Shown piece by piece: positions 1 to 30,690 of a stretch of DNA of 64,000 bases (position 1 is its first letter; every line of letters starts with the position of its first letter). A model generated the notes under the pieces. That model searched no databases. It saw nothing but the letters and a program-made list of their open reading frames with translations, and was not told the DNA's origin. The stretch spans positions 3,511-67,510 of the forward strand of contig JAYFMV010000019.1 of assembly GCA_042408245.1 (NCBI GenBank), written 5' to 3'. A program made the position numbers and the translations under genes. This stretch comes from Potamolinea sp. Its GTDB lineage: Bacteria; Cyanobacteriota; Cyanobacteriia; Cyanobacteriales; Coleofasciculaceae.

Positions 1-53
1 ACGGCTTTTGTAACTAACATTACAACGGTCAGCAAAAAGAGGAGGTAAAGAGG

Positions 54-371: not shown

Positions 372-586
372 ACTATAGTCAGTAAAACGTGGTTACAAGC
401 GCTTTTATAAAAGTGGGCTATAAGTACCCCATCTCTTTCTTCGGGTGGGGATTAAAGCCTGGTATTTTTGAAGGGTCACGCGCTCTGCACCAGGCAAGTA
501 GCAAACGAACCCTTCAAGAAAACACCATAGGCTAGAGTTTCTAGTTAAGTTTTTGGCGGCGCGGGCCAAGTCACCGCCGCAGTAGC

Positions 587-3082: not shown

Positions 3083-3278
3083 AGGAAATAGCAGGTAGTA
3101 AGAGTGGTTTATGCTACCCTGACCTGCACTCTTTGAGCAGACGACTCACTGACATTAAAAGTTTTCGGTGCTTAACATTTCTTATAATAAATCGCCTTCC
3201 TTGCCTAGTCACCAGAGACATATTCAGTCAGCTTAGAAGAGAAAATGAGATTAGGTTATCAATCAAGTAGCCAGCCCA

Positions 3279-3863: not shown

Positions 3864-3864
3864 T

Positions 3865-3968
3865 GGTTGTTGGTTGTTGGTTGTTTGTTGTTTGTTTTTA
3901 GCTACGGACTACTGACCACCAACTACTGACCACTGACCACTGACCACTGACCACTGACCACTGACCAA
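3865..3968. repeat. heptamer tandem repeats: (GGTTGTT)-like followed by (CTGACCA)x7
   Basis: Direct reading: ggttgttggttgttggttgtttgttgtttg, then ctgaccactgaccactgacc... These are STRR-type repeats. Confidence 0.9.
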
Positions 3969-4099
3969 TCAATTGTAATTTGAGAACGAACTGTGGCAGA
4001 TTGAGTAGATTGGCGCACGCTTGAAGAGCAGTTCAATCTGCTGAAATAGGCGATTGGGCTTTGCCCACTGCCGAAGGCGATCGCGCACATAAGTCGTAA

Positions 4100-5398
<1,299 letters not shown>

Positions 5399-5477
5399 CA
5401 CTAGGGACACAGACAGCTATCTTGTGTCAGAGATTACAATGAAGAAATGTGATGAAACTTTACATTAAATAATTCTT

Positions 5478-6572
5478 ATGTCAATTTTGGCGGCGATCGC
5501 AGTTTTGGCGATTTTGATTGTAGTTCATGAGCTGGGTCACTTTATGGCCGCTCGTCTTCAAGGAATCTACGCCAATCGCTTTTCCTTGGGTTTTGGCCCA
5601 GTTCTCTGGAAATACCAGGGGCCGCAAACCGAATATGCGATTCGTGCATTTCCCCTAGGCGGTTTCGTGGGCTTCCCCGATGATGACCCAGATAGCGAAA
5701 TTCCTCTTAATGACCCGAATTTGTTGCGCAATCGACCGATTTTAGACCGGGCGATCGTCATTAGTGCAGGTGTCATTGCTAACCTAATTTTTGCTTACTT
5801 TCTCCTAGTAACTCAGTCAGCAACCGTAGGTATCCCAGACTTCAACAATGTAGGTGTTTTGGTTCCTCAAATTGCTGCACAAAGCAGTTCTGTGGCACAA
5901 AAAGCAGGTATTCAAGCCGGAGATGTGATCTTAGCCATAGATGGTCAAGATTTGGGTAAGGGATTGAAAGCCACGGATACCCTGAAGAAGACGATTCAGA
6001 AATCTCCAAACCAACCCTTAGAACTGACAATTAAGCGCAATGAACAAAGCTTGTCAGTTCAGGTAAAGCCGGAAGCAGGACAAGACGGCAAAGGTAAAAT
6101 TGGTGTACAGTTGAAACCCAACGGCAAAGTGGTACGCAAGCGGTCAAATATTGTAGAAGCTTTCAGTACCGCAGCCGAAGAATATCAGCGAGTTATTATT
6201 CTGACAGTTCAAGGTTTTGGGCAACTATTGAGTAATTTCGGCGAAACTGCAGAACAGGTTTCTGGCCCTGTAGCGATCGTAGCGATTGGGGCGAATATTG
6301 CTCGTTCAAACCTTGCAGATCTTTTACAGTTTGCCGCCCTGATTAGCATCAACTTGGCGATTATTAATATCTTGCCCTTACCAGCGCTTGATGGTGGTCA
6401 GTTGGCATTTTTGGCAATTGAAGGAGTTTTGGGGAAGCCTTTACCTACTGAAATTCAGCAGAACATTATGCAAACCGGCTTGGTGTTGTTACTGGGTTTA
6501 GGTATTTTCTTGATTATTCGGGATACGGCTAACCTGATTCCTACAAGTTGGGTGCAAAACTTATTCCAGTAA
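5478..6572 (+). CDS. rseP: RIP (site-2) zinc metalloprotease RseP-like with PDZ domain
   Basis: HELGHFMAARL (HExxH) at the N-terminus, a central PDZ domain, and C-terminal LPLPALDGGQ (LDG motif). Confidence 0.9.
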   Translation: MSILAAIAVLAILIVVHELGHFMAARLQGIYANRFSLGFGPVLWKYQGPQTEYAIRAFPLGGFVGFPDDDPDSEIPLNDPNLLRNRPILDRAIVISAGVIANLIFAYFLLVTQSATVGIPDFNNVGVLVPQIAAQSSSVAQKAGIQAGDVILAIDGQDLGKGLKATDTLKKTIQKSPNQPLELTIKRNEQSLSVQVKPEAGQDGKGKIGVQLKPNGKVVRKRSNIVEAFSTAAEEYQRVIILTVQGFGQLLSNFGETAEQVSGPVAIVAIGANIARSNLADLLQFAALISINLAIINILPLPALDGGQLAFLAIEGVLGKPLPTEIQQNIMQTGLVLLLGLGIFLIIRDTANLIPTSWVQNLFQ

Positions 6573-6830
6573 CAAATGTTGTGGGTTGTTGGTTATTTGT
6601 CATTGGTTATTTGTTATTGGTCATTGGTTACAAACAACAAACAACTAACAACAAACAACTAAGCAGGTGAGTGAAAATAAACACAACATGGGCAGGGCGG
6701 GTTTTGAATATAAAATACTGGTTCGTGTCAAGCCTTATCCCTAAACCCGCCCCTACAAATTTATTTGGTTTTTTTTACGCTACCTGCTTAACAACCAACA
6801 ACAAAAAACTAACAACCAATGAGTATTACT
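6573..6830. repeat. inverted heptamer-repeat arms flanking a palindromic hairpin element (PATE/MITE-like, core 6690-6760)
   Basis: The left arm (ttggttatttgtcattggttatttg) and right arm (caaacaacaaacaactaacaa) are inverted. The core hairpin is gggcgggtttTG...ctAAacccgcccctaca. The same core recurs at 45674-45745 next to tnpB. Confidence 0.8.
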
Positions 6831-7559
6831 CGTAAATGGTCAGCAACTGTGCAGAGGGCTTTAGAGATTTTAATTCGCCTCAAGCGACTTTATCCCGAAG
6901 CCCCCTGCACCCTTAACTACGAAACACCCTTTCAGTTACTTGTAGCAACAATTCTCTCAGCTCAATGTACCGATGAACGGGTAAATCAGGTAACCCCAGC
7001 ATTATTCCTACGCTTTCCAGATGCGATCGCCTTGGCTTCGGCCAATGTCGAAGAAATAGAGAACTTGGTACGTTCCACCGGCTTCTATCGCAACAAAGCG
7101 AAAAATATTCAAGGTGCTTCTCGCATGATTATGGCTGAGTTTGGCGGTGAAGTACCCCAACGTATGGAAGAACTACTAAAGTTGCCAGGAGTCGCCCGTA
7201 AGACAGCCAACGTGGTGCTGGCCCATGCTTATGACATTCACCAGGGCGTTACAGTAGATACCCACGTGAAGCGCCTCAGCAAGCTCCTAGGCTTAACAGA
7301 ATACGAAGACCCGATTCGCATTGAGCGAGATTTGATGAGACTTTTGCCTCAACCAGAATGGGAAAATTGGTCAATCAGACTGGTATATCACGGTAGGGCG
7401 ATTTGTAAAGCCAGGAAACCAGAATGCTATGCTTGTTTACTTGCCGATTTATGTCCGAGTGCTGATCTGCCTGGGTTAATGCCTGCGGAAGCAGGGATTG
7501 TGGAATCGAGTGTTACTGCAACAGCCTCTAATTCAGTAGTAATGAGTTCCGAGTCCTGA
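6819..7559 (+). CDS. nth: endonuclease III (DNA glycosylase/AP lyase)
   Basis: FQLLVATILSAQCTDERVN motif, helix-hairpin-helix, and a C-terminal 4-Cys cluster (CxxxxxxC..C..C). Confidence 0.9.
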   Translation: MSITRKWSATVQRALEILIRLKRLYPEAPCTLNYETPFQLLVATILSAQCTDERVNQVTPALFLRFPDAIALASANVEEIENLVRSTGFYRNKAKNIQGASRMIMAEFGGEVPQRMEELLKLPGVARKTANVVLAHAYDIHQGVTVDTHVKRLSKLLGLTEYEDPIRIERDLMRLLPQPEWENWSIRLVYHGRAICKARKPECYACLLADLCPSADLPGLMPAEAGIVESSVTATASNSVVMSSES

Positions 7560-7684
7560 CTTTTAAGTATAAGCTCACAAACTCACAAGAACTTTTGACT
7601 GAGAATTGAGGAGTGATCACTAACTTTGTGGCAATCAGATAAGATAAAAAACGGTGTCTTTGTTTAGGAAACCTTGAGGGATTA

Positions 7685-7987
7685 ATGGCTAAGAAAGGAA
7701 TGATCGAGCGCGAGAAAAATCGCCAAAGACTTGTGGATAAGTACGCTGAAAAGCGGGCACTCCTGAAAGAGGAGTTTGAAAATGCCACAACTCAACGCGA
7801 GAAATTAGAAGCGCACCGGAGACTGCAACAGTTACCCCGCAACAGCGCACCAACCCGTTTGCGGAATCGTTGCTGGGTTACAGGCCGTCCTCGCGGTTAC
7901 TACCGGGATTTTGGATTATCTCGCCACGTACTGCGGGAATGGGCACATAAAGGACTACTCCCAGGGGTTGTTAAATCTAGTTGGTAG
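7685..7987 (+). CDS. rpsN: 30S ribosomal protein S14
   Basis: 100 aa: [20 protein letters not shown]...[19 protein letters not shown]. Confidence 0.95.
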
Positions 7988-7997
7988 TTACTTAGTT

Positions 7998-8042
7998 TTT
8001 AGTCATTAGTCACTCGAAAGCTGACCAATGACTAATGACTAA
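7998..8042. terminator. bidirectional hairpin between convergent genes
   Basis: agtcattagtca...tgactaatgact, a stem of about 12 bp lying between the rpsN stop and the 3' end of the minus gene. Confidence 0.55.
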
Positions 8043-14035: not shown

Positions 14036-15877
14036 TTGGAGCGAGGCATATTTTTGGCAGTATTTTCCAGCATGAAACATCTAGTTAGGCAAGGATTAAA
14101 AATCAAAGAGCGACATCCTGCAATTGCTTGGGGATTAGCAATTTTGTGGCTACTGTTAATTAGTTTCCTCGCTTTCTTTTGGAACTTAGGTAACACTGGC
14201 TTAATTGATGAAACTGAACCACTGTTTGCAGAAGCGTCTCGACAGATGACAGTGACGGGAGATTGGATTACTCCCTACTTCAATACTGTCACTCGCTTTG
14301 ATAAACCGGCTCTGATTTACTGGTGTCAGGCGATCGCTTACAAAATCTTTGCAGTCAATGAATTTGCTACCCGACTCCCTTCAGCACTAGCCGGATTGGC
14401 ACTCACAAGTCTAACTTTCTACACCTTAAAATATTTTGGCAATTTGATTGGAGATTGGAGAGCCAAGGAGCAGGATTCTGCATTCACCACCGCATCCCAA
14501 TGGCAATCCTGGTTAGTAGCATGTATGGGTTCAGCAATGGTGGCCTTACATCCCCTAACCTTGTTTTTTGGACGTACTGGCTACTCAGATATGTTGCTGA
14601 GTTTATGTTTTGGTGGAGCGCTACTATCTTTTTTTCTAGGTTATGCTCAACCAGAATTACCAAAAGTTCAGGAACGTTGGTATTTAGCTTTTTACGTTTT
14701 GATGGCTTTAGCTGTTTTAACTAAAGGGCCAGTGGGAGTTGTTCTACCTGGTTTGATTATTATTTCTTTCCTAATTTATGTTGGCAAAATCAGGGAAGTT
14801 CTTGGGGAAATGCGTCTGATTCGGGGCGCCATAATTTTTCTGACTATCAGCGTACCTTGGTTTGTTCTGGTAATTTTGCGTAACGGCGATGCTTATATTA
14901 ACTCCTTTTTTGGTGTACACAATTTTGAAAGATTTACTAGCGTCGTCAATGCTCATCAAGGGCCTTGGTACTTTCACATTTTGATAGTATTACTTGGCTT
15001 TGCCCCTTGGTCGATTGGATTACCGAGCGCGATCGCCAATATTAAAGTTTTCCAGCGACGCCATTGGCAACAATCACCCCGCAAATTCCATCTCGGACTA
15101 TTTGCCTTATTTTGGTTCGTGATTGTCCTAACTTTTTTTACCATTGCCGTTACCAAATATTTTAGCTACAGCTTACCGCTGATACCTGCGGCTGCAATTC
15201 TCCTAGCACTTTGGTGGAGTGAACAGATTGTACAAGGACAAATTTTCCAGCAACAAAGCCGCAGCTTAAAGTTAACCAGTATTGTGAGTATCATCTTTTT
15301 TATAATACTTGCAGGTGCTTGTTTCTGGAGTCCAAACTGGTTGAAAACTGAAGCTACTATGCCTAATCTTGGCTGGCGGATCAGCCAAGCAGGTTTGTCT
15401 AATTTCGGGGCAATTGTTTGGGGAGGAAGTACAATTGCTGGAATTGTTCTACTACTGAGGCGTCAAATTCATTTACTATGGGGAGTAAAATTTTGGGGAT
15501 TTGTTGCCTTCTTGATGTTTGTAATTATGCCAGCTTCATTCATCCTTGATGCTGAACGCCAGTTGCCTTTGCGCCAAATTGCTCAATCTATCGTTCAGGT
15601 AAGAACATCCGGGGAAGAAGTGATGATGATTCCAGAAACATTTGAAAAGCCAAGCTTGGTTTTTTACACAAAACGACCTGTAACTTTTTTACGGTCTGCT
15701 TCAGAAGCTGTTCCCCGTATTCAGAAAAAAAACAAACAATTTAATCCCAAATCTGTACTGTTGATCGGTAGTAGTAAATCTCTCAAAGAAGCAGGGTTGC
15801 AACCAAAGCAGTATAAGTTAATTACTAAGGCGGGCATTTACCAGTTAGTTCGCGTACCAAGGGTAGGAGTTCGCTAA
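14036..15877 (+). CDS. GT39/GT83 ArnT/PMT-family glycosyltransferase (polytopic membrane)
   Basis: 613 aa and more than 10 TM segments. N-terminal DETEPLFAEASRQM...YF...TRFDKPALIYW loop, typical of dolichyl/undecaprenyl-phosphate sugar transferases. Confidence 0.8.
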   Translation: MERGIFLAVFSSMKHLVRQGLKIKERHPAIAWGLAILWLLLISFLAFFWNLGNTGLIDETEPLFAEASRQMTVTGDWITPYFNTVTRFDKPALIYWCQAIAYKIFAVNEFATRLPSALAGLALTSLTFYTLKYFGNLIGDWRAKEQDSAFTTASQWQSWLVACMGSAMVALHPLTLFFGRTGYSDMLLSLCFGGALLSFFLGYAQPELPKVQERWYLAFYVLMALAVLTKGPVGVVLPGLIIISFLIYVGKIREVLGEMRLIRGAIIFLTISVPWFVLVILRNGDAYINSFFGVHNFERFTSVVNAHQGPWYFHILIVLLGFAPWSIGLPSAIANIKVFQRRHWQQSPRKFHLGLFALFWFVIVLTFFTIAVTKYFSYSLPLIPAAAILLALWWSEQIVQGQIFQQQSRSLKLTSIVSIIFFIILAGACFWSPNWLKTEATMPNLGWRISQAGLSNFGAIVWGGSTIAGIVLLLRRQIHLLWGVKFWGFVAFLMFVIMPASFILDAERQLPLRQIAQSIVQVRTSGEEVMMIPETFEKPSLVFYTKRPVTFLRSASEAVPRIQKKNKQFNPKSVLLIGSSKSLKEAGLQPKQYKLITKAGIYQLVRVPRVGVR

Positions 15878-17529
15878 TGCAGACAATTCAGAAATGGTTA
15901 GCTCAAAAATCTAATCATTCAGTAATTTATTTGTTAATTGGGGGATTGCTGTTTCGCAGTTTAATTGCTTTTTGGCTGTTCCCTGGTTTTGATGAAGCCT
16001 ATTACTATGTCTACACCTTAAATTTGGATTGGAGTTATTTTGACCATCCAGCTTTAGTAGGGCTAACTACTGCTTTTGGTCCCTGGTTAACGGGAGAAGT
16101 CTCACAATTTACGATTCGTCTGGGAACGCTAATTTTACATACAGGAAGTTTGTTGTTGCTGTATCTAACCAGTGCTAAACTCTTCTCAACAAAAGCTGCT
16201 AATTTTACTTTAATTATCGCTTCCATCACCCCAATTTTTCTAGTTGGCTTTGGAACCTTCACTTTACCAGACAATCCTTTGATATTTTTCTGGTCAGCTA
16301 GTTTGTATTGTGCCTCCTGTGAATTTTTTGGGCAATCTTCAACTCAAAATTCCGATTCTGATACATCTCTTCCCTATCTCCCCAGCTACCGATTAGTAAT
16401 TCTTAGTATCCTTGTTGGTTTAGCCTGTTTAGGTAAATATCACGGCTTTGTATTAGGCTTCGGATTAGTTGCTTTTTGTTTGACAAGTCCCCGTCATCGT
16501 TCCGCACTACTATCACCTTGGGCCTGGTTGGGATTAAGCTTGTTTATCCTGACAATTTCCCCAATTTTGTTATGGAATATGCAGCATGAGTGGGTATCTT
16601 TGCGTTTTCAATCAGAGCGCGGAGTGCCTAGAGGAGGTTACAATTTCCTGAGTGTATTAGGCATATTTTCAGTTCATGTAGTTTATTTATTCCCCACTAT
16701 CGGATTACCTCTATGGTGGCTAAGTTTGCGGTCATTTTTTAGGAAAACAACTCAACTTTTTTCCCATAAATTGCCAACTTACGATAGAGATTTAGGGGAA
16801 AAGCAGTTATTAATTTTATGGGTATCCCTACCTTTAACTTTAGGATTTACCTTCATGGCAGGATATCAACAAATTTTGCCTACTTGGCCGATGCCAGGAT
16901 TTTGGGGGATAACTTTACTGTTAGGAGAATATACAGTTAGATGGGAGCAACAATCTCGGCTTTGGGTGCGTCGCTGGCTACAAGGTTCGGGAATTGTCAT
17001 CGGTATCAGTTTACTGCTTGCTCTACTCCATGTCACCACAGGAACGCTACAAAAGCCTAGTCAATACTCCCTACTGGGAGGGTTTTGGTCGCCTAAAGAT
17101 GACCCTTCAACAGAGTTGATTGATATTCAGCAAATGCGGCACGGTTTTGTGGAATCTCCGGTGCTAAGTGCAGCTTTGCGGGACTCTGGCTTTATATTTA
17201 CTAATGGCTATTACTTAGGTGGACTGATTGCGATGGCTCTTCATCCTATAAATCAAACACCGATTACTTGCTTTAGTTCTGATCTGCGTGGTTTTGCTTT
17301 TTGGTCGAAGCCAGATCAATGGTTAGGAAAAGATGCTTTGTATATTACTCTGGCTCGCTTTAAGGAAAAAAAAGAGCTACTGGAACGATATCAGAATTAT
17401 TTTAGCAGTATGCAGGAGATTGGAACGGTACCAATTAAACGAGGTGGGGCAATTACAGAAGTTATTTATGTTTATCAAGCCAAGAATTTACTAAAGCCTT
17501 ATCCTCGTCCTTATGGGATTAAAAATTAA
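15877..17529 (+). CDS. second GT39/GT83 ArnT-like glycosyltransferase (paralog)
   Basis: 550 aa, polytopic, FDEAYYYVYTLNLDWSYFDHPAL loop. Its start overlaps the upstream stop (TAATG). Confidence 0.75.
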   Translation: MQTIQKWLAQKSNHSVIYLLIGGLLFRSLIAFWLFPGFDEAYYYVYTLNLDWSYFDHPALVGLTTAFGPWLTGEVSQFTIRLGTLILHTGSLLLLYLTSAKLFSTKAANFTLIIASITPIFLVGFGTFTLPDNPLIFFWSASLYCASCEFFGQSSTQNSDSDTSLPYLPSYRLVILSILVGLACLGKYHGFVLGFGLVAFCLTSPRHRSALLSPWAWLGLSLFILTISPILLWNMQHEWVSLRFQSERGVPRGGYNFLSVLGIFSVHVVYLFPTIGLPLWWLSLRSFFRKTTQLFSHKLPTYDRDLGEKQLLILWVSLPLTLGFTFMAGYQQILPTWPMPGFWGITLLLGEYTVRWEQQSRLWVRRWLQGSGIVIGISLLLALLHVTTGTLQKPSQYSLLGGFWSPKDDPSTELIDIQQMRHGFVESPVLSAALRDSGFIFTNGYYLGGLIAMALHPINQTPITCFSSDLRGFAFWSKPDQWLGKDALYITLARFKEKKELLERYQNYFSSMQEIGTVPIKRGGAITEVIYVYQAKNLLKPYPRPYGIKN

Positions 17530-18915: not shown

Positions 18916-19160
18916 TCAGTTGTCAGTTGTCAGTTGTCAGTTGTCAGTTGTACAGCCCTACGGGCATGAAAAACGGTTGTCAGTTGTTATTTGTTGGTTG
19001 TGTAGGGGCGTAGCATTTGCTCCCAAATATTTAGGTATTACCGACCATCTAACAATCGCTTTTGCTACGCCCTTCCTGTCAGTGATCAGTGCTTCTGATT
19101 ATCAATTACCAATTACCAATTACCAATTACCAATTACCAATTACCAATTACCAATTACCT
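18915..19160. repeat. heptamer arrays (CAGTTGT)x5 and (CAATTAC)x8 plus the inverted copy of the 35-bp element seen at 17701-17735
   Basis: Direct reading. ttgtacagccctacgggcatgaaaaacggttgtcagttg (18943-18981) is the reverse complement of aaccgttttcatgcctgtagggctgtacaact (17697-17728). Confidence 0.85.
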
Positions 19161-22100
19161 GTTTTGAGCGAGACTTTGATTAATTTGCTCTAATAATTCG
19201 CTCATGGATTGGGAAGAACCTCGGAGAACTTTGGTAGCGAGGGTTTTTAACAGTGCATCTAGGCCAGAATTTGATTTTCTATTGTTAGTTTTACCTTGCT
19301 TTAAATGCGATGCTTTTGATGTCGCTATCGCTTCTCGAATGCTATCGCTATCTAATCGATGATCTAGCACAAGTATGGGTGGTAGCGTTTGCAGTCCAGT
19401 CAGAGAAAGCAGTTCATTCACCAGTGTTGAAGAGTCGTTAATATCTCTTAAACGAATCACCAGTAAGTCAACGCTTTGTTCTTGAAGTTGACGGTATACT
19501 TCTGTCCAAGAAGACGAAAGTAAGCTTCTAAAGCCAGCAGTTTGGAGGTATTGTATGAAAGCTGGGAGCCAGGAGGCTTGAGAAGTCGGGGTTGTGGAAA
19601 TTTTCGAGCTATCCCCTTCTCCCTGAGCACTCTCCCCAATAACCAAGGAGGGTTGAGGACATTGGGGAATTACCTCAGCTTTCTGGGTGCTGCGTTCTCC
19701 AATGTCCATCACAAGAATGCTGGGCTTGCTGGTCATCCCCACGGCAACTTGAATCACTTGCAATAAGGCAGGCATCTTGGAAGTGCGATCTGATGTTAAA
19801 CAAGGATATACAGTTAGTCCAGTGAGTTGATTTGCCGCCTCTGTTGTCTGGCGATCTAGCGTTACCAGTGGTAAAGAAGTCAAGGCCTTATAGAAGGAGA
19901 ACTCTTCCAAGAAGTTTAGGGGATCGGCAATTTCTACAGTGTCTAGTAAGATGACATCTGGACGCCAAATACGGCTCAATAATTCTGCCTGATCTAAATC
20001 ATCAGCTTCGAGTAATCGGTAATTGAGTTCTGAGTGCTGAACACTTAGGAATTCAGTGAATTCAGAACTGAGTATGGATGAATGAAAGCGCGTATCATCC
20101 CCAACTGGACAGAGGTGGAGAATTGTCAGATTGCTGCTAGTGGGAGGTGAGCTATCGCATAAACAATTCAGATTATGTAATAAGGCTTTTTCTTGCACTG
20201 GTAAGTTTAAGAAGCCATCAGCTTTGTGATGATAAGCCTGTTGTTTTTCTGCCTGTGTTGCTGTTACTAAGACGGGAATATGAAGAGTTTGGGCATCGGA
20301 TTTGAGTACTGTTAAGACATCCCAGCCGGAAAGTTGGGGTAAAAGAGGATTGAGTAAAATTGCACAGGGTTGGAAGCGGCGGGCTTTTTCGATCGCCTCT
20401 GTACCTGATCGAGCAATGATCACTCGATAGCCGAAACTCCTCAGTTGTTCCGTCAAACCTTCCAAATAGCGGGGTACAGTTTCAACAATTAACACCAAAC
20501 GGTTGTGGATGGAGCATTGAGGATTGGGGATTGGGATTTGGGTAATCTCGCCGTCCTCTTCTGAGTTTCCACTTGCTTGAGGAGGACAAGGTGGTAAGAG
20601 AAGGGTAAATTGACTTCCTTCACCTATTTTGGAAATAAAAGAAACATCGCCACCGTGTAAACGAGCAAGGCGTTGAGTTAAGACCAATCCTAAACCTGTT
20701 CCTTCAAAGCGACGGGTGAGGGGTTTTTCCAACTGTTGAAATTTCTGAAAAATCAAGTGCTGTTGCTCCGTTGGGATGCCAATGCCAGTATCCCAGACAG
20801 TGAAAGCAATCCAGCCTTCCCAACGACTGACTCTCAGACCTATTTCACCTCCCTCCTCTGTAAACTTGAGAGCATTAGAAAGTAGGTGCATCAACATTTG
20901 GCGCAGACGCAACTCATCGGCTACAAGAGTTTCTAGTCCCGGTTCGATCTCTAGGGTAAATTTTATTTCCTCTGGGGATTCTTCGTCTTGTGGCTCTTTT
21001 TCTGAGGGTCGTTGTAGCGCTTGAGAATAGGCGCGATCGCATACAGCCTGAACCTGCACCGGCTCCAAAGTCAGTTCCATCTGACCTGTTTCCATGCGAG
21101 TTAAATCCAGGATATCGTTGACCACGGCCATTAGCTGACGCCCACTTTGATAAATCAGTTTGGCATAGCGAGCTTGGCGATCATTTAGTTTCCCTAATGT
21201 CTGATCTTTCAGGAGCGTTGATAAACCCAAAACAGCAGTAAGAGGCGTCTTAAGTTCGTGGCTAATACAAGCTAAAAACTCATCTTTCAGTCGATTTAGT
21301 TGTACTAAATCGGCATTTTTTGCTGTCAATTCTTGGGCAACCTGTTGCTGTTCCGTGGTGTCTTGAGCTAGCACTAACCACAGATTAGTTGTTGGCGATT
21401 GGGAAGATTGATAGGAATTTGTCGAGGAATTTTCCCCAATTTCGTAGGATAGTTGTCCCGCCTGTCCTATCCAGTCTCTCTCTTTTAAAATAGACTTCGG
21501 CAGGGGAATTTTCACAAAAGAGAAGACGCGATCGATGCCATTTTTTCGCATTTCTGAAGCTGGTACGAAAGCCTCCCAAGCAGTTGGAGAATCTTGGAAG
21601 TTGAGCAGCGGTGGTTCTTCTAGGAGCGATCGCAATTGAGAAACCGTTGCAGCCATGCGGGGGGTATCAAGGGCACAGTAGCGTTCTCTAGCAGCTTGAG
21701 CAACAGGTTGATACTGCTGTTTTGTAACATTTCTCAGAGGATTGGGCGATGTCCTTCGGACAGGCTTCGTCAACCGAGAAGCGTAGGCTTCACCCAATCG
21801 CCCCACAGAAGCAGTCGCGGCGTTTTGTTGTTGTACACTGCTAGATTGGGTTGATTGCAGCTCACGCGCTGGAGCATCTAACCCAGGAGCAGGACTAAAT
21901 CTAATACAGCCCAGATTAGGCGATGTCCCAATCAGAGTCCGCCAAGTGAGATTTTCAGCCAGTATTTGCCCCGTAGAGGTTTGTATGCTTAGGGGTAAAG
22001 GCAGTTGTTCTAACAGTGGGACTAAAGAATTGAGCATCGCTGGTTCCGGTTCTTCCAGAGTACTCGCACCCACATCAGTTGCTGTTAGTTTTGGTGCCAA

Positions 22101-22622
22101 GGATTTTAAGAGCAAGCAAATGTTGAGCATTCCCTGAAACTTTCCTTCCCCATCTACCAAGGCCCAGTTCTCAGCAATAAGCCTTGGAGAGTGGGAAGAT
22201 GCGTCCATCCTTTTGCTTTCTTCCTCCCTAGTTGCCAATCCCCATTGCCCTTGATCTACTTCAGTCAGTCTCTCTCCAGACTTTTGTAAATATGCCCAGA
22301 ACTGTTCTAATTTCAGCTTTTCTGGTAGGATTACCAAAGGTTCAAGGAGCGGCGGATCTAGCTCAGAAAGAGGCTGGTGGAAATCAACAGAGGCGATCGC
22401 CACAGGAGTTTTCCCGTCATCAGCCGCTGGGAGCAGATAGGGCATTACCTGTCGCAGGTTGACCAATCCCAAGGGACGCTGCTGTTCGCTTACTACAACA
22501 ATTGCGTCACTCCCTGAAGACCTAAAAATCTCCAGCACGTCAGCGATACCACAAGTTGGTTCACAAACAGGAATGGCTTGAGCAAATTCTTTTAAGCTGG
22601 GAGTTGGCATTAACATGACCAT
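19155..22622 (-). CDS. multidomain hybrid sensor histidine kinase with three degenerate (pseudo-)receiver domains
   Basis: HisKA H-box EFLACISHELKTPLTAV and HATPase_c (G-box GTGLGLVLTQ). Three CheY-like folds follow in which the phospho-Asp position is not conserved, e.g. AILLNPLLPQLSGWD. Divergently transcribed from kaiA. Confidence 0.8.
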   Translation of the reverse strand: MVMLMPTPSLKEFAQAIPVCEPTCGIADVLEIFRSSGSDAIVVVSEQQRPLGLVNLRQVMPYLLPAADDGKTPVAIASVDFHQPLSELDPPLLEPLVILPEKLKLEQFWAYLQKSGERLTEVDQGQWGLATREEESKRMDASSHSPRLIAENWALVDGEGKFQGMLNICLLLKSLAPKLTATDVGASTLEEPEPAMLNSLVPLLEQLPLPLSIQTSTGQILAENLTWRTLIGTSPNLGCIRFSPAPGLDAPARELQSTQSSSVQQQNAATASVGRLGEAYASRLTKPVRRTSPNPLRNVTKQQYQPVAQAARERYCALDTPRMAATVSQLRSLLEEPPLLNFQDSPTAWEAFVPASEMRKNGIDRVFSFVKIPLPKSILKERDWIGQAGQLSYEIGENSSTNSYQSSQSPTTNLWLVLAQDTTEQQQVAQELTAKNADLVQLNRLKDEFLACISHELKTPLTAVLGLSTLLKDQTLGKLNDRQARYAKLIYQSGRQLMAVVNDILDLTRMETGQMELTLEPVQVQAVCDRAYSQALQRPSEKEPQDEESPEEIKFTLEIEPGLETLVADELRLRQMLMHLLSNALKFTEEGGEIGLRVSRWEGWIAFTVWDTGIGIPTEQQHLIFQKFQQLEKPLTRRFEGTGLGLVLTQRLARLHGGDVSFISKIGEGSQFTLLLPPCPPQASGNSEEDGEITQIPIPNPQCSIHNRLVLIVETVPRYLEGLTEQLRSFGYRVIIARSGTEAIEKARRFQPCAILLNPLLPQLSGWDVLTVLKSDAQTLHIPVLVTATQAEKQQAYHHKADGFLNLPVQEKALLHNLNCLCDSSPPTSSNLTILHLCPVGDDTRFHSSILSSEFTEFLSVQHSELNYRLLEADDLDQAELLSRIWRPDVILLDTVEIADPLNFLEEFSFYKALTSLPLVTLDRQTTEAANQLTGLTVYPCLTSDRTSKMPALLQVIQVAVGMTSKPSILVMDIGERSTQKAEVIPQCPQPSLVIGESAQGEGDSSKISTTPTSQASWLPAFIQYLQTAGFRSLLSSSWTEVYRQLQEQSVDLLVIRLRDINDSSTLVNELLSLTGLQTLPPILVLDHRLDSDSIREAIATSKASHLKQGKTNNRKSNSGLDALLKTLATKVLRGSSQSMSELLEQINQSLAQNR

Positions 22623-22935
22623 TCTTGCTGAATTTGAGCATAATCGCTGATTAAAGCTAGGGCCTCCCCGCTTGATTGAACTGAAAATGGGGTTGACTAT
22701 AGCCGCATCGCGTGAAGGAAAAATTTCGTCGGTTCTTTGAAGCAGTACAGCTCAATTATTGCTCTTGATTGGGAGTATATATCCCCTAGCAATTACAATT
22801 TCTTACAATTCTCAAATTCTTTAATTAATGTTAAGTATTTTTCTGAATAAATTGTTAAAATGTACCCCAATAGAGTGATGTTACACCCTAAATCGCGAAT
22901 AGTTCTTTTTAACACTTTTTTCAACATAAATCGTT

Positions 22936-23853
22936 TTGCATCCCCAACTGACTATCTGTACGTTTGTGCCTTCCGAATCCCTGACTCAGTCGTTGAGTCA
23001 GTTTTTGAGCAGCGAACGCTATATCTTGCACATCACTGTTTCAGAATCCGAGTTTTTCGAGTTTGTGGATCGACACAAGCAGCAGCTTGATTGTTTGGTT
23101 GTACAGGATGAACACTCATTATTGCCAGTACTCAACCGACTATACGAGCAAGGAACGCTGCTACCTGTTGTAATTTTTCCCCAGGAATTGGTAGAAGTCA
23201 CGTCTTGCGTTGCTAGCAATCAAGAGATCGAAACCAGTCAGACGCTGAATGAGGCCGAGGTGGCCAAATTAAATCATCTGTTCCATGCCGCTGAAGTCCG
23301 AGTCAATACTACCCAATTGCCTGAGATTAGGAGCTTTATTGAAAAAGCGATCGCTCAGTTTGTCTCTCTTTCTCCGGCCTATACCTTTCCCGATTGGTCT
23401 ACCACTGTCGAGCGCCAAACCGATCTGACCCCTAATAGTTTCCTCATCCAGCAGCAGTACCGATTATCTGAAAAACTCAAGGAAAGACTTGGATACCTGG
23501 GTGTGTATTACAAAAGAAATTCCCAGCTTTTTTTACGTAATCTAGCTCCAAAGCAAAGAGAAAAGCTTTTAGAAAAATTAAAATTCGGGTATCGTCAGAT
23601 CGTTTTAAAGTATTTTTCTCAAGAAGATTCCCTTAATCAACAAATCGATAGCTTTGTCGAGCAAGCATTTTTTGCTGATATTCCAGTCTCTAGGGTTGTG
23701 GAAATCCATATGGAACTAATGGAAGAATTCGCCAAGCAGTTGAAGCTAGAAGGGAGAAGCGAGGAGGTGTTACTAGATTATCGACTGACCCTGATCGATG
23801 TTATTGCTCACCTGGGCGAAATGTATCGACGGTCTATCCCTAGAGAGTTATAA
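22936..23853 (+). CDS. kaiA: circadian clock protein KaiA (full length, with N-terminal pseudo-receiver)
   Basis: The N-terminus is colinear with Synechococcus KaiA: LTICTFVPSESL vs IAICIWVESTAI, and KQQLDCLVV vs RDQIDCLIL. C-terminal HMELMEEFAKQLKLEG..LIDVIAHLGE. Gene order kaiA-kaiB-kaiC. Confidence 0.85.
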   Translation: MHPQLTICTFVPSESLTQSLSQFLSSERYILHITVSESEFFEFVDRHKQQLDCLVVQDEHSLLPVLNRLYEQGTLLPVVIFPQELVEVTSCVASNQEIETSQTLNEAEVAKLNHLFHAAEVRVNTTQLPEIRSFIEKAIAQFVSLSPAYTFPDWSTTVERQTDLTPNSFLIQQQYRLSEKLKERLGYLGVYYKRNSQLFLRNLAPKQREKLLEKLKFGYRQIVLKYFSQEDSLNQQIDSFVEQAFFADIPVSRVVEIHMELMEEFAKQLKLEGRSEEVLLDYRLTLIDVIAHLGEMYRRSIPREL

Positions 23854-23992
23854 TACAAACCTTTAGCTATCAGCTTTTAGCGCTAAGCTTGAAGAAAGCT
23901 CTTAAATTTACCTAGTTTTTGAGTTGATTTTCGGATGACCTTGTATTCTTAACCTGTATACTTGCTGATTGCTTATAGCAACTTACAAAATT

Positions 23993-24307
23993 ATGAGTCC
24001 GTTAAAAAAAACTTATGTTCTCAAGCTTTATGTAGCTGGAAACACTCCCCACTCTATTAACGCTTTGAAAACACTTAAAAACATCCTAGAACAAGAATTT
24101 CAAGGAGTTTACGCCCTAAAAGTGATTGATGTCCTAAAAAGCCCACAGCTAGCTGAGGAAGACAAAATCTTGGCTACACCAACTTTGTCCAAAGTCTTAC
24201 CTCCACCTGTCCGAAAAATCATTGGTGACCTTTCGGACAGGGAAAAAGTTTTGATAGGCTTAGATCTTCTTTATGAAGAACTGCGAGAAGAGGAATTAGA
24301 TTTTTAG
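23993..24307 (+). CDS. kaiB: circadian clock protein KaiB
   Basis: [49 protein letters not shown] is near-identical to KaiB. The upstream in-frame M at 23969 is unlikely to be the start. Confidence 0.95.
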
Positions 24308-24386: not shown

Positions 24387-25964
24387 TTGACAATAACAGA
24401 AAACATGAATCAATCTAAAAAAACTGAACAAAAGCCTGACACTTTAACATCGGTAGGAGTCCATAAAATAAGGACGATGATCGAAGGTTTCGATGATATT
24501 AGTCATGGAGGTTTACCGATTGGGCGCACCACCATCGTCAGCGGAACATCTGGCACCGGAAAAACGCTGTTAGCGATTCAGTTTCTCTATAACGGAATTG
24601 CCTATTTTGATGAGCCTGGTGTATTTGTAACTTTTGAAGAATCTCCCACAGATATCATTAAAAATGCTTACAGTTTTGGTTGGGATTTACAACAATTAGT
24701 TAATGATGGCAAGCTATTTATTTTAGATGCCTCACCAGATCCAGAAGGACAAGAAGTTGTCGGAAACTTTGACCTTTCTGCCTTAATTGAACGCATTCAA
24801 TACGCCATTCGTAAATATAAAGCCAAGCGAGTTTCTGTTGATTCAATTACTGCAATCTTTCAACAATACGATGCTGCTTCAGTAGTAAGAAGAGAGATTT
24901 TTCGCTTAGTTGCACGTCTCAAACAAATTGGCGTGACAACAGTAATGACAACAGAAAGAGTTGAGGAATATGGTCCAGTAGCCAGATTTGGAGTGGAAGA
25001 ATTTGTCTCCGATAATGTGGCAATTGTTCGTAACGTCCTAGAAGGGGAACGTCGTCGTCGTACCATAGAAATTCTCAAGCTGCGTGGTACAACCCACATG
25101 AAGGGCGAATACCCTTTTACTATGACTAACCAGGGTATTAATATCTTCCCGTTAGGAGCAATGCGCTTGACTCAGCGTTCTTCCAATGTTCGCGTATCTT
25201 CAGGTGTTGAAACTCTTGATAAAATGTGCGGTGGTGGTTTTTTCAAAGATTCAATTATTCTGGCAACTGGTGCTACTGGTACTGGCAAAACTTTGCTGGT
25301 TAGTAAGTTTATCGAAAATGCTTGCTCGCGAGGCGATCGCGCTATTCTTTTTGCCTATGAAGAATCTCGCGCTCAGTTGTCTCGTAATGCTTATTCCTGG
25401 GGTATTGATTTTGAGGAAATGGAACAAAATGGTCTACTAAAAATCCTTTGCACTTACCCAGAATCATCAGGACTAGAAGACCATTTACAAATTATTAAAT
25501 CGGAAATTGCTGAATTTAAGCCTTCTCGAATTGCGATAGATTCCCTTTCTGCTTTAGCGCGAGGAGTTAGTAATAACGCTTTCCGGCAATTTGTGATTGG
25601 CGTTACTGGTTATGCAAAACAAGAAGAAATTACGGGATTTTTCACTAATACTACTGACCAGTTTATGGGGTCTAATTCAATTACAGATTCTCATATTTCC
25701 ACGATTACTGACACAATTTTGATGCTGCAATACGTGGAAATTCGCGGAGAAATGGCTCGTGCTATCAACGTTTTCAAAATGCGTGGTTCTTGGCACGATA
25801 CAGGTATTCGTGAGTACACTATTAGTGAAGATGGGCCAGATATCAAGGATTCATTCCGCAACTACGAAAGAATTATCAGTGGTTCTCCCACTCGTATTCC
25901 TGTGGATGAAAAGAGCGAACTTTCCCGAATTGTTCGAGGTGTACGCGAAAAATTAGAGGAATAA
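24387..25964 (+). CDS. kaiC: circadian clock protein KaiC
   Basis: Duplicated RecA-like domains, Walker A GTSGTGKT and GATGTGKT, C-terminus SFRNYERIISGSPTRIPVDEKSELSRIV. Colinear with S. elongatus KaiC along its length. Confidence 0.97.
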   Translation: MTITENMNQSKKTEQKPDTLTSVGVHKIRTMIEGFDDISHGGLPIGRTTIVSGTSGTGKTLLAIQFLYNGIAYFDEPGVFVTFEESPTDIIKNAYSFGWDLQQLVNDGKLFILDASPDPEGQEVVGNFDLSALIERIQYAIRKYKAKRVSVDSITAIFQQYDAASVVRREIFRLVARLKQIGVTTVMTTERVEEYGPVARFGVEEFVSDNVAIVRNVLEGERRRRTIEILKLRGTTHMKGEYPFTMTNQGINIFPLGAMRLTQRSSNVRVSSGVETLDKMCGGGFFKDSIILATGATGTGKTLLVSKFIENACSRGDRAILFAYEESRAQLSRNAYSWGIDFEEMEQNGLLKILCTYPESSGLEDHLQIIKSEIAEFKPSRIAIDSLSALARGVSNNAFRQFVIGVTGYAKQEEITGFFTNTTDQFMGSNSITDSHISTITDTILMLQYVEIRGEMARAINVFKMRGSWHDTGIREYTISEDGPDIKDSFRNYERIISGSPTRIPVDEKSELSRIVRGVREKLEE

Positions 25965-27236: not shown

Positions 27237-28865
27237 TTAAAAAGGGCGATTATCACGCAGAATTTGCAGATTCTTACGGATGGTAACAGTATTGGGATGA
27301 TTTGTTCCTAATCTTCGTTGGGCAATCTCTAAAGCTTGCAGATACAAAGGTTCAGCTTCAGTGTAGCGTCCTTGAGATTTGTAGAGACCTGCCAAGTTGT
27401 TGAGACTGGTAGCGACAGCGGGATGGTCTTCTCCCAGAAGGCGTTTTGTCAACTCTAAAGCTTGCAGATACAAAGGTTCAGCTTCAGTGTAGCGTCCTTG
27501 AGAATTGTAGAGACCTGCCAAGTTGTTGAGACTGGTAGCGACAGCGGGATGGTCTTCTCCCAGAAGGCGTTTTGTCAACTCTAAAGCTTGCAGATACAAA
27601 GGTTCAGCTTCACTGTAGCGTCCTTGAGATTCGTAGAGTGCTGCCAAATTGTTGAGACTGGTAGCGACATTGGGATGGTCTTCTCCCAGAAGGCGTTTCC
27701 ACAACTCTAAAGCTTGCAGATACAAAGGTTCAGCTTCAGTGTAGCGTCCTTGAGATTTGTAGAGGTATGCCAAGTTGTTGAGACTGGAAGCGACATCGGG
27801 ATGGTCTTCTCCCAGAAGGCGTTTGGTCAACTCTAAAGCTTGCAGATACAAAGGTTCAGCTTCAGTGTAGCGTCCTTGAGATTTGTAGAGGTATGCCAAG
27901 TTGTTGAGACTGGAAGCGACATCGGGATGGTCTTCTCCCAGAAGGCGTTTGGTCAACTCTAAAGCTTGCAGATACAAAGGTTCAGCTTCAGTGTAGCGTC
28001 CTTGAGAATTGTAGAGACCTGCCAAGTTGTTGAGACTGGTAGCTAAATCCTCCTCTAAACCAAACTCTTTTTGTAAATCAATTGCTTTGCCAAGATACTG
28101 GATTGCTAGAATTTGTTCCTGCTGATAATCCTGCGATTCTCCCTGGTCTAATCTTTTTTTATAAATGCTTCCCATTCTGAAATAAAAATCCGCCAAACTA
28201 GGGTCTTTTTTCCCCCTTTGCTGTTCAATTTTTCTAATTAATTCCTGCAAGTCTTTTAGGGGTATCAACGAAGTGCCATCTTCATCTGTACCCAAGAATT
28301 TCTGTTCTTCTGGAGTCAAGCGTAAGTCAGTAAATTCTTTCCTTAAAACTGCACTTCTCTTTTTAGAAGCAAACCGAAAAACACCCTTGCGCCAACTCCA
28401 AAAATCCAGAGCTTTTTTACTCAAACTTGCCTGAATTTGATTCGTCATCCAGATCACAATTGGAAAAGGAAACTCTCGCATTCCTTCCCGCGTCCACTGT
28501 AAATAACCGAAAAAAAGATCTTGCTCTGAGCGTTTTTCACCAAGTTTCAAAAAGTAAAACTGCTCGATACCCGTCACCGTCAAAACCGCTTGTCCACCCT
28601 GACGCAGATACTCATCTTTTGCCACTAACTCAGCAATAGCCGCCCTCAGACTAGGTTCCCTGCGTGCTAATGTTACCCGATAGGGACGCATCTCTGGCTG
28701 CAATTCTGCCTCATATCGTTGAATTATCTGCTCACGGAAATCAAGCTGATCACATACTGCAATCAACAAGCTCAACTTTCCCTGACTTGCTTCAATTGAA
28801 ACCAGCAAATCATCATAACTATCTTCATTTTGATCTGTCGTATCTGGGAAAGATTGAGTGTCCAT
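27237..28865 (-). CDS. TPR (kinesin-light-chain type, TPR_10/12) repeat protein with uncharacterised 280-aa N-terminal domain
   Basis: Six near-identical 42-aa repeats LNNLAxLYxSQGRYTEAEPLYLQALELTKRLLGEDHP. The start ATG abuts the upstream ATPase stop (TAAATG). Confidence 0.8.
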   Translation of the reverse strand: MDTQSFPDTTDQNEDSYDDLLVSIEASQGKLSLLIAVCDQLDFREQIIQRYEAELQPEMRPYRVTLARREPSLRAAIAELVAKDEYLRQGGQAVLTVTGIEQFYFLKLGEKRSEQDLFFGYLQWTREGMREFPFPIVIWMTNQIQASLSKKALDFWSWRKGVFRFASKKRSAVLRKEFTDLRLTPEEQKFLGTDEDGTSLIPLKDLQELIRKIEQQRGKKDPSLADFYFRMGSIYKKRLDQGESQDYQQEQILAIQYLGKAIDLQKEFGLEEDLATSLNNLAGLYNSQGRYTEAEPLYLQALELTKRLLGEDHPDVASSLNNLAYLYKSQGRYTEAEPLYLQALELTKRLLGEDHPDVASSLNNLAYLYKSQGRYTEAEPLYLQALELWKRLLGEDHPNVATSLNNLAALYESQGRYSEAEPLYLQALELTKRLLGEDHPAVATSLNNLAGLYNSQGRYTEAEPLYLQALELTKRLLGEDHPAVATSLNNLAGLYKSQGRYTEAEPLYLQALEIAQRRLGTNHPNTVTIRKNLQILRDNRPF

Positions 28866-30152
28866 TTAAATGTGTCCTCTTTCTTGCAGCAGTTCAGTCA
28901 CAATCGGGTGAACATCGTACCAAAGTTTAGCATTCCTATACTCTAAAATATACAAGCCATGTAGTAAATCCAGAAACTTTTGTTCTTTCGGATCATTGGG
29001 TCGAGATTCCTTGTAAGTTGTTTCTAAAATCTGGTAATCATCTGTACCAATCCGAGTATCGAAATCAAGACTGAGTTTAGTAATAGCTTCCTTGAGAATT
29101 GCCTCATTGATTTTAATATCAGTACGTTCAGGGTAACGCCGAACTAAGCGTAGGCAAATCCGACAACATTCATTGGCAATTCTGATTAACTCCCGCAAGA
29201 CTCCACCGCTATAAATAATAATTTGCTGGGCTGTTTGTTCTTCAATCAATTCATGGGTGAGCCGTTTGTTGAGAATTTCGCAAAGCCTTGCGGTTGGTTC
29301 GGCTTTTGGGACAGCATTCGGTTGACGACGTTCTCCCATAGCAAAGAGTTTTGAGACTGGCATGGGGATAATTTGATTATTCGTCTCTGTCTCAATCAGA
29401 GACATCAGAGAAACTTCTCTTAAGGCAGCAATAGGTATGGTAAAAATAATCCTAAAGTTAGGTTGAAATAATGCCTTAATATGCTCTTGGAATACTTCTC
29501 TTACCAGTTCCAAGTCTAATTTATCTAAGTCGTCAATAATAACCACAATATCTTGATTTGTTGCTGCATAAACAACAGCAGCAATTTCATTGATGCGAGC
29601 AATTAAATCAGAGACTTTGCGGGCAAATTCTTGCTTAATTTCGTTACGAGTAGAGGCATCTGCTTTGAGCTTACCAGAAATTAGTTTGAATAAATTAAAG
29701 CCAACCGAACCTTCAGCTTTGTACTCTTCTGTTTTAATCTGAGTCCGATTAGCAAACCATTGATAAAAAGCATCTTTAGTTGTTTGTTTAATGTTGACTT
29801 GCCGTTTTTCTGCTTGCTCCATGAGGCGAACTGCAATGGCAAAAAGAATATTAATATGATTGACATCTGACATTTCAATCATGTCGGAAATTGAGAAAAT
29901 GACAACAAAATATCTGTCCCCAATTCGCCGACTCAACTCAGAAAGTAAGGTAGATTTACCACAGCCACGATGACCTGTGAAAACAATTTTTCCGTCACCT
30001 GAAGGACTATCTTCAACCAGTTGTTCTAGTTCTTCAATAACTTCAGTACCGTACTCTACTTTAAATTTTTCTAATTCTTTTTGCTCCAAAAGTGGCAGCA
30101 ATTCCAAGTTTCTGTAGGCTTCTCGAAAAGACTCTAATAATTCGTTAGGCAT
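28866..30152 (-). CDS. P-loop NTPase, STAND/AAA_16-like
   Basis: Walker A GHRGCGKSTLL, Walker B IVVIIDDLDKLD, then a helical C-terminal half. Co-transcribed with the TPR gene. Confidence 0.75.
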   Translation of the reverse strand: MPNELLESFREAYRNLELLPLLEQKELEKFKVEYGTEVIEELEQLVEDSPSGDGKIVFTGHRGCGKSTLLSELSRRIGDRYFVVIFSISDMIEMSDVNHINILFAIAVRLMEQAEKRQVNIKQTTKDAFYQWFANRTQIKTEEYKAEGSVGFNLFKLISGKLKADASTRNEIKQEFARKVSDLIARINEIAAVVYAATNQDIVVIIDDLDKLDLELVREVFQEHIKALFQPNFRIIFTIPIAALREVSLMSLIETETNNQIIPMPVSKLFAMGERRQPNAVPKAEPTARLCEILNKRLTHELIEEQTAQQIIIYSGGVLRELIRIANECCRICLRLVRRYPERTDIKINEAILKEAITKLSLDFDTRIGTDDYQILETTYKESRPNDPKEQKFLDLLHGLYILEYRNAKLWYDVHPIVTELLQERGHI

Positions 30153-30222: not shown

Positions 30223-30690
30223 GAAGTCCGACACCCTCAAGGGTGCGGCTACCTGAACAAAGTCCGCCTGCGCGGACTAAATGCCCAAGACTTGTGATAG
30301 CCTGCGTAGGCAGGCTTGGTTCCTGTAGCCCCAGGCTTAAGCCTGCGGGGCTTTTGAGCAACTAAATGCCGAACAATGGTGATCTAAGCCCGACACCCTC
30401 AAGGGTGCGGAACCACACGAACAAAGTCCGCCTGCGCGGACTAAATGCCCAAGACTTGTGATAGCCTGCGTAGGCAGGCTTGGTTCCTGTAGCCCCAGGC
30501 TTAAGCCTGCGGGGCTTTTGAGCAACTAAATGCCGAACAATGGTGATCTAAGCCCGACACCCTCAAGGGTGCGGAACCACACGAACAAAGTCCGCCTGCG
30601 CGGACTAAATGCCCAAGACTTGTGATAGCCTGCGTAGGCAGGCTTGGTTCCTGTAGCCCCAGGCTTCAGCCTGCGGGACTTTGATGAGAA
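30223..30690. repeat. three tandem copies of a ~163-bp unit rich in internal hairpins
   Basis: Units start at 30223, 30386 and 30550. Copies 2 and 3 are near-identical. Internal palindromes include caccctcaagggtg, gtccgcctgcgcggac, agcctgcgtaggcaggct and caggcttaagcctg. The last copy overlaps the final 8 codons of the MVP homolog. Confidence 0.9.

Follow-up and report, generated by a model that had tools for sequence, protein, structure and literature searches.

A soluble histidine kinase with three predicted pseudo-receiver domains, encoded head-to-head with kaiABC: a candidate clock-associated signalling protein of filamentous cyanobacteria

We analysed a 64,000-nucleotide stretch of the genome of Potamolinea sp. 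(Cyanobacteriota, Coleofasciculaceae; GenBank assembly GCA_042408245.1, contig JAYFMV010000019.1, positions 3,511 to 67,510 of the forward strand), which is referred to below as the window and is numbered from its first letter. Its subject of interest is a large histidine kinase gene that lies head-to-head with the clock genes kaiA, kaiB and kaiC and encodes three C-terminal receiver-like domains, here named PsR1, PsR2 and PsR3. An earlier reading of the same letters (the original prediction) had described a kinase of 1155 amino acids (aa) diverging from a full-length kaiA across a spacer of 313 base pairs (bp). The coordinates of the open reading frames (ORFs) bear this out, with the refinement that the true start of the kinase is probably Met5 and the spacer then about 325 bp, because homologues begin at the equivalent of Met5 (MPTPSLKEF). 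Residue numbers refer to the full ORF, with Met1 at 22620-22622. The locus comprises the following features:

19155-22622, minus strand: kinase gene, 1155-codon ORF, soluble sensor histidine kinase with three C-terminal pseudo-receivers
22608-22610, minus strand: Met5, probable true start of the kinase, from homologue starts
22623-22935, no strand: divergent intergenic spacer common to the kinase gene and kaiA, 313 bp from ORF coordinates
22936-23853, plus strand: kaiA, 305 aa, TTG start, full length, with N-terminal pseudo-receiver and C-terminal KaiC-activating domain
23969-24307, plus strand: kaiB (Pfam KaiB, E 3.3e-29)
24387-25964, plus strand: kaiC, two domains (Pfam KaiC ATPase, E 9e-122)

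Linkage of the kinase gene to kaiABC

Orthologues of the kinase were taken from 80 species-representative genomes, giving 81 aligned sequences together with the window protein. Full-length homologues share 42-97% identity, and the sampled loci come from Coleofasciculaceae, Moorena, Symploca, Microcoleus, Oscillatoria, Lyngbya, Spirulina and many Nostocales, with identity down to 42%; the family is found mainly in filamentous taxa. In public annotation its members appear as 'hybrid sensor histidine kinase/response regulator', 'ATP-binding protein' or 'response regulator'. The 80 loci were searched by tblastn with KaiA, KaiB and KaiC of the window, and with three loci carrying no upstream DNA, 77 could be assessed at species level. 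The kinase gene is head-to-head with kaiA-kaiB-kaiC in 76 of them, and kaiB and kaiC follow kaiA in all 76 except on a few contigs that are truncated or broken (L007, L033, L040, L044). The linkage is also kept in Nostocales despite their truncated KaiA.

A search with the PsR2-PsR3 segment against 1.84 billion representative proteins returned 416 clusters at E <=1e-3, and in nearly all of these the segment is C-terminal in proteins of 1000-1270 residues. Among the matches listed, distant metagenomic members with 35-38% identity over PsR2-PsR3 show the same arrangement, since all three with upstream sequence face kaiA-kaiB-kaiC, while a fourth distant kinase member lies at a contig end. The outer flanks of the locus, on the other hand, are turned over completely: downstream of the kinase only one of the 80 loci has the LptF/LptG gene, and no locus shares the genes beyond kaiC. 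A near-universal position beside kaiABC is thus a feature of the family, and a lack of synteny with kai genes elsewhere, which had been named beforehand as an observation that would speak against the original prediction, was not what we found at the 76 loci and in the three distant members.

Two loci are noted individually. In Tychonema sp. LEGE 06208 (L073) the upstream region (1-8000) encodes a 522-aa ORF and a polysaccharide-biosynthesis protein. In a distant locus (L083, 9261-9926) a NarL-type response regulator (REC and GerE domains) lies convergent and directly downstream of the kinase, with hetZ close by, an arrangement that is absent from the window.

KaiA of the window is of the full-length type, because both of its Pfam domains are present, namely KaiA_N (PF21714, E 2e-41, residues 5-147) and the C-terminal domain (PF07688, E 1.2e-61, residues 183-304). 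Homologous KaiA proteins align from residue 1 of the window protein. Nostocales loci match it only at residues ~175 to 303, in line with the report that truncated KaiA is almost confined to Nostocales, where it is contrasted with the full-length type (Schmelling et al. 2017, PMC5520375). The original prediction had likewise stated that this KaiA retains its N-terminal domain, unlike KaiA of many Nostocaceae. The kaiA frame of Nostocales can be extended upstream, and no similarity to KaiA_N was detected in the extension.

Domain architecture of the kinase family

The kinase belongs to a large cyanobacterial family with an architecture of CBS pair, putative sensor region, HisKA, HATPase and three pseudo-receivers. 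In the window kinase these parts are located as follows:

22083-22610, minus strand: CBS pair (Bateman module), residues ~5-180, from Pfam and profile matches
21333-22040, minus strand: conserved sensor region, residues ~195-430, two conserved blocks and an insert of variable length
21084-21287, minus strand: HisKA (the dimerisation and histidine phosphotransfer domain, DHp), residues 446-513, Pfam E 1.9e-18, with phospho-accepting His455 (codon 21258-21260) in the motif H-E-L-K-T-P
20592-20918, minus strand: HATPase_c (the catalytic and ATP-binding domain, CA), residues 569-677, Pfam E 5.4e-27
20157-20495, minus strand: PsR1, residues 710-818, Pfam Response_reg E 1.6e-12, with Asn758 (codon 20349-20351) at the acceptor position
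19740-20132, minus strand: PsR2, residues ~831-961, CheY fold by model, with Asp894 (codon 19941-19943) and Thr921
19161-19721, minus strand: PsR3, predicted CheY fold with two low-confidence loops, with Arg1057 (codon 19452-19454) at the acceptor position

The Pfam CBS match is weak in the window kinase itself (residues 17-63, E 7e-4, below the cut-off). Of 26 homologues, 20 gave a Pfam CBS match (best E 1.3e-7), and a profile of residues 1-440 matched CBS-pair structures at E 3e-13 and 1e-7, spanning both CBS motifs. In the sensor region two blocks are conserved (residues 195-235 at 54% and 361-430 at 45%), while the insert between them (236-360) is at 19%; the second block ends in LAQDTTEQQQ. 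For residues 195-430 no Pfam match was obtained in the window kinase or the 26 homologues, and no match in the Protein Data Bank (PDB) by sequence profile. By eye alone the region has a likeness to PAS domains; as hhalign against photoactive yellow protein returned nothing either, we assign it to no domain family.

The canonical histidine kinase core of the original prediction is confirmed by Pfam for both HisKA and HATPase_c. His455, Glu456, Asn583 of the N box, Asp611, Gly613 and Gly615 of the G1 box, and Gly641, Gly643 and Gly645 of the G2 box are invariant in all 81 sequences. No transmembrane segment was detected in the kinase (maximal Kyte-Doolittle average over 19 residues, 1.35). Given the invariance of His455 and of all three boxes, we take the protein to be catalytically competent, and it is very likely a soluble, active kinase. 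Conservation is extreme around the phosphorylation site: over residues 431-515, which span the DHp helices, mean identity to the window kinase is 86% and 46 of the 85 columns are invariant across the 80 species, and mean identity is 84% in the CA domain and 42% in PsR3. Three cysteines, Cys452 in the H box, Cys528 and Cys941, are conserved or invariant across the family.

PsR1 is recognised by sequence. A profile built on its 81 sequences finds PleD and DivK at E values of 1e-13 to 1e-15, and the pairing with PleD places Glu714 at Asp9, Thr715 at Asp10, Asn758 at the phosphorylated Asp53, Thr787 at Thr83 and Leu807 at Lys105. All 81 sequences have Asn758 and Glu714, and residue 715 is either Thr or Ala. 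The most conserved stretch of the domain, LNPLLPxLSGWDV, is the equivalent of the region of the quinone site of KaiA near the beta3-alpha3 loop.

For PsR2 and PsR3 no Pfam match was found. Their profiles against PDB sequences gave non-significant matches (E 0.3), albeit to receivers and in register, and comparison with PsR1 by hhalign was weak (probability 41% for PsR2 and 3% for PsR3). Since the sequence-profile matches were non-significant, the fold assignment is based on structure models. Each domain was modelled singly with AlphaFold from an alignment of 87 family members, and the catalytic positions were mapped from the secondary structure of the models together with the in-register profile alignments. 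The model of PsR2 (residues 826-966) has a (beta-alpha)5 fold at a predicted local distance difference test score (pLDDT) of 86.3 and a predicted template modelling score (pTM) of 0.83, and receivers account for almost all of its top Foldseek matches in the PDB (among them WspR, KdpE, RssB, Spo0F, RpaA and PhoB). In the acceptor column of PsR2 (894) Asp occurs in 72, Asn in 5 and Glu in 4 of the 81 sequences, and Thr921 is invariant. No acidic residue follows beta1 (Leu837-Cys838 in the window, His/Arg-Leu-Ser/Val across species), and the Lys position is taken by Tyr or Phe939, followed by the invariant Pro940. In PsR3 a single Asp (Asp973) follows beta1, the Thr and Lys positions are taken by Asp1087 and Leu1133, respectively, and the acceptor column (1057) holds Cys in 46, Arg in 23, His in 4 and Asp in 3 species. 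The Cys is found in 28 of the 30 Nostocales loci with truncated KaiA and in 18 others, and the Arg in the clade of the window. Together with the conserved cysteines of the family, the Cys at the acceptor position of PsR3 hints at redox sensitivity.

In sum, the acidic pair is absent and the Lys is replaced in all three domains, the acceptor Asp is kept in PsR2 alone, and the Thr is kept in PsR1 (Thr787) and PsR2 (Thr921) and lost in PsR3. No domain carries the full catalytic set, so that retention of all phospho-acceptor residues, the other observation named beforehand as speaking against the original prediction, was not seen. The original prediction of three CheY-like folds agrees with our data, through Pfam for PsR1 and structure models for PsR2 and PsR3. 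Its statement that the phospho-acceptor context is lost holds for PsR1 (Asn758) and PsR3 (Arg1057) but has to be corrected for PsR2, which retains Asp894 at the acceptor position. By the published definition, a pseudo-receiver is a recognisable member of the receiver fold or family without key phosphotransfer residues (PMC12632262). All three domains fit this definition, PsR2 and PsR3 as modelled, through structure alone. The protein offers a clear natural example of a kinase with three tandem pseudo-receivers, two of which escape sequence-based domain annotation.

The shared spacer and other genes of the window

The spacer between the kinase gene and kaiA is ~290-320 bp long in the clade of the window, ~390 bp in Microcoleus and 600-1300 bp in Nostocales, where the gap (L034 6762-8000, and L035-L080) holds no convincing ORF. 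An alignment of 19 spacers from the clade of the window revealed three strongly conserved blocks, the central one being a direct repeat:

22792-22809, plus strand: HLR1-like direct repeat ATTACAAT-TT-CTTACAAT, candidate site for an OmpR-family regulator such as RpaB
22754-22761, minus strand: -10-like conserved block, reading CAATAATT on the strand of the kinase gene (aligned as GAGCAATAATTGAGCTGTA across the 19 spacers)
22856-22861, plus strand: extended -10-like conserved block TGTTAAAAT facing kaiA (block ATTTTAAC as read on the kinase strand)

HLR1, the site of RpaB, has been described as (G/T)TTACA(T/A)(T/A)-N2-(G/T)TTACA(T/A)(T/A) (PMC6525291), and the repeat fits 14 of the 16 consensus positions, deviating at the first base of each octamer. 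The repeat is the sole exact match to TTACAWWNNNTTACAWW in the 64-kb window, where 0.01 are expected. At this relative position 22 other loci also carry TTACA-N5-TTACA, a pattern matched just 3 more times in the remaining 1.28 Mb of locus sequence. If the two -10-like blocks are indeed promoters, the repeat would be centred near -53 for the kinase gene and at ~-45 to -67 for kaiA, positions which fall in the range where HLR1 sites activate, namely when centred ~50 nucleotides (nt) upstream of the start site (PMC6525291). A generic scan of the spacer for sigma-70 promoters and terminators gave no enrichment over shuffles, and the proposed promoter elements come solely from conservation across species. 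The conserved blocks including the repeat are consistent with a shared regulatory region, and through the HLR1-like site a light/redox regulator of the RpaB type may act on the kinase gene and possibly on kaiA too. In several Nostocales spacers with truncated KaiA a different conserved element, TTTAGATAGATATACAT, is found at a fixed position.

Several other genes of the window are worth recording. Two tandem genes for PMT_2-type (dolichyl-phosphate-mannose-like) membrane glycosyltransferases (14036-17529, plus strand) are followed by an LptF/LptG permease gene, the latter converging on the kinase gene. On the other side of the kai genes this evidently filamentous cyanobacterium encodes an 889-aa homologue of the eukaryotic Major Vault Protein (30666-33335, minus strand; Pfam Vault repeats E 1e-60, MVP_shoulder E 6e-52, and Vault_2/3/4), with STAND-type NTPases carrying TPR arrays on both sides of its gene (27237-30152 and 33801-35801, both minus strand). 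The first of these regions is made up of an AAA_16/KAP NTPase (28866-30152, minus strand) and a TPR_12/TPR_10 protein (27237-28865, minus strand), and the second encodes an NB-ARC-TPR protein. A protein similar to IS605 OrfB and TnpB with a Cas12f1-like TNB domain (46439-47197, plus strand) points to a mobile element in the window, and a PP2C-family protein phosphatase gene lies at 54477-55202 (minus strand).

Proposed role and comparison with known systems

The reading towards which we lean, with modest confidence, is that of a cytoplasmic, competent kinase that exchanges phosphate with a separate regulator, uses its pseudo-receivers for regulation or docking, and serves the Kai system as input and/or output. 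A phosphorelay-type hybrid histidine kinase was rejected, because no receiver is catalytically complete and no Hpt (histidine phosphotransfer) domain was found in the kinase by Pfam, even though the core is intact. With no complete receiver-like domain, the phosphoryl group of His455 is most likely not relayed within the kinase; instead, the kinase would phosphorylate or dephosphorylate a separate response regulator, probably one that is highly conserved itself, since DHp helices conserved to such an extreme point to a partner of like conservation. In HisKA kinases the H-E-x-x-T motif beside the phospho-His goes along with phosphatase activity. The three pseudo-receivers may act as regulatory or docking modules, for which the pseudo-receivers of CikA, KaiA and ShkA provide models (PMC12632262). 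That the kinase gene stays beside kaiABC across several orders suggests that its product cooperates with the Kai oscillator on the input side, the output side or both, and linkage and analogy are all that this role is drawn from. The CBS pair may, speculatively, sense the adenylate or energy state of the cell, an attractive idea given that the clock of Synechococcus is known to be entrained by the ATP/ADP ratio. Its conserved position makes the kinase, in our view, a strong candidate for an undescribed, predicted clock-associated signalling protein.

A bolder and in our view rather unlikely version would make the family an unrecognised Kai-clock component of filamentous cyanobacteria, in which the pseudo-receiver array docks on KaiB/KaiC complexes or KaiA and makes the enzyme act on RpaA or RpaB either as a kinase or as a phosphatase, the CBS pair feeds in energy status and, in Nostocales, the array could replace in trans the lost pseudo-receiver input of KaiA.

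A number of observations weigh against a role in the clock. No description of the family or of its kaiABC linkage was found in the literature searched. The CikA pseudo-receiver is missing from the best 60 sequence matches of the C-terminal part and from the listed profile matches of PsR2 and PsR3, as well as from the top 50 fold matches of PsR2 and of PsR3. No partner response regulator was found among the neighbouring or regulator-sized ORFs of the window, and none is consistent across loci. The HLR1-like repeat is strong only in the clade of the window, is degenerate in Microcoleus (GTTAAGATTGGTTAC) and is absent from Nostocales spacers, where other conserved sequence is in its place. Divergent pairs that share a promoter can moreover stay linked for regulatory rather than functional reasons, and in Tychonema sp. 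LEGE 06208, the sole assessable locus of this kind, no kai genes were present in the 8 kb upstream that were examined. The closest named NCBIfam model, finally, is HrmK (NF038297), the hormogonium kinase of Nostoc punctiforme and thus a hormogonium regulator rather than a clock protein.

The main alternative is that regulation or history rather than function keeps the kinase gene beside kaiABC, held in place by an indivisible divergent promoter, and that the kinase serves another pathway, for example a developmental or motility pathway like that of HrmK. We find this doubtful, though it deserves serious attention. The HrmK match of 295 bits over the kinase core and PsR1, the mainly filamentous distribution, hetZ close by in one locus, the broken linkage in one genome and the lack of a clock-specific domain (KaiB-like or GAF) by Pfam all fit with it, but the HrmK score is far under its cut-off of 725, and the linkage extends across several orders to ~42% identity while both outer flanks are exchanged. 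Nostocales retain the linkage despite a spacer of 600-1300 bp with changed blocks, which argues against a fixed shared promoter as the sole constraint. A second alternative concerns phosphotransfer itself. PsR2 might be a working atypical receiver, making the protein a true hybrid kinase with a relay from His455 to Asp894 to an unlinked Hpt protein, as might be suspected from the frequent Asp894, the invariant Thr921 and the confident receiver-fold model. Both metal-binding acidic positions after beta1 are non-acidic, however, Tyr or Phe before an invariant Pro replaces the Lys, residue 894 is Asn or Glu in nine species and the kinase has no Hpt domain of its own, so that we hold this to be very unlikely.

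Least probable to us is that the kinase is the filamentous-cyanobacterial orthologue or replacement of CikA. CikA, too, is a soluble histidine kinase with a tie to the Kai system, whose core is followed by a receiver-like domain without acceptor Asp, and a 2025 study that sought substitutes for it found the canonical cikA of Nostoc punctiforme to be weakly expressed (PMC12691664). This study would have missed the window kinase, because only GAF-containing kinases were searched. Yet a separate canonical cikA has been reported for Nostoc and Anabaena, CikA is not among the sequence or fold matches listed above, and the window kinase differs in having a CBS pair instead of GAF, three pseudo-receivers instead of one and genetic linkage to kaiABC. 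By Pfam, no GAF was detected at E up to 1 in the window kinase or at E <=0.01 in 26 homologues. Of the CikA-type logic put forward in the original prediction, the succession of a kinase core and pseudo-receivers remains, while the absence of GAF, the number of pseudo-receivers and the lack, among the matches listed, of specific similarity to the CikA pseudo-receiver set the two proteins apart.

Returning to the reading of a Kai-linked kinase with regulatory pseudo-receivers, the known systems supply partial models for its C-terminal domains. The single pseudo-receiver of CikA holds back autophosphorylation and is a binding partner of quinone and of KaiB (PMC12632262). KaiB is bound in the night complex, and the domain cannot take phosphate from the kinase because the acceptor Asp is missing. 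The N-terminal domain of KaiA is similarly a CheY-like fold without acceptor Asp that acts as a regulatory input module of the clock, with a quinone site near the beta3-alpha3 loop (PMC12632262). The KaiA_N profile has no specific relation to PsR1, PsR2 or PsR3 (best PsR3, E 0.009, probability 4.5%), which likewise counts against a clock role, and an origin of the pseudo-receivers by duplication of the KaiA N-domain was rejected. In ShkA of Caulobacter, too, tandem domains of the receiver fold follow the kinase, and one of these, a pseudo-receiver, keeps the kinase inactive until cyclic di-GMP (c-di-GMP) binds to it (PMC12632262). By analogy, this gating is a plausible model for the control of the window kinase by its tandem pseudo-receivers, although ShkA ends in a functional receiver and the window kinase has none.

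Among named kinases, HrmK is the best match, which covers coiled-coil, HisKA, HATPase and the first receiver and leaves out the CBS pair, PsR2 and PsR3; HrmK has ~607 aa, and identity with it was rejected on the score. TorS, BarA, ArcB and NF006800 were dismissed as well, with all NCBIfam scores far below their cut-offs. NF006800, for which the library description reads 'histidine kinase' and which we take to be the SasA family model, gave 131 bits against a cut-off of 342. SasA resembles the window kinase as a HisKA-type kinase that is functionally tied to KaiC and acts on an orphan regulator, RpaA. It docks, however, through an N-terminal KaiB-like (thioredoxin-fold) domain and has no receiver-like domain, whereas no KaiB Pfam match was obtained in the window kinase, whose N-terminus is the CBS pair, and identity with SasA was therefore rejected.

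The mechanism of the cyanobacterial clock is known nearly entirely from the unicellular Synechococcus elongatus, with CikA and SasA as its two clock kinases. Filamentous cyanobacteria differ, in that KaiA is truncated in Nostocales and the canonical cikA is reported to be weakly expressed in Nostoc punctiforme. A broad survey of clock components included no synteny analysis (Schmelling et al. 2017, PMC5520375). Next to CikA and SasA, the conserved place beside the kai genes and the extreme conservation of the core and docking helices would make the kinase described here the most obvious candidate for a third clock kinase.

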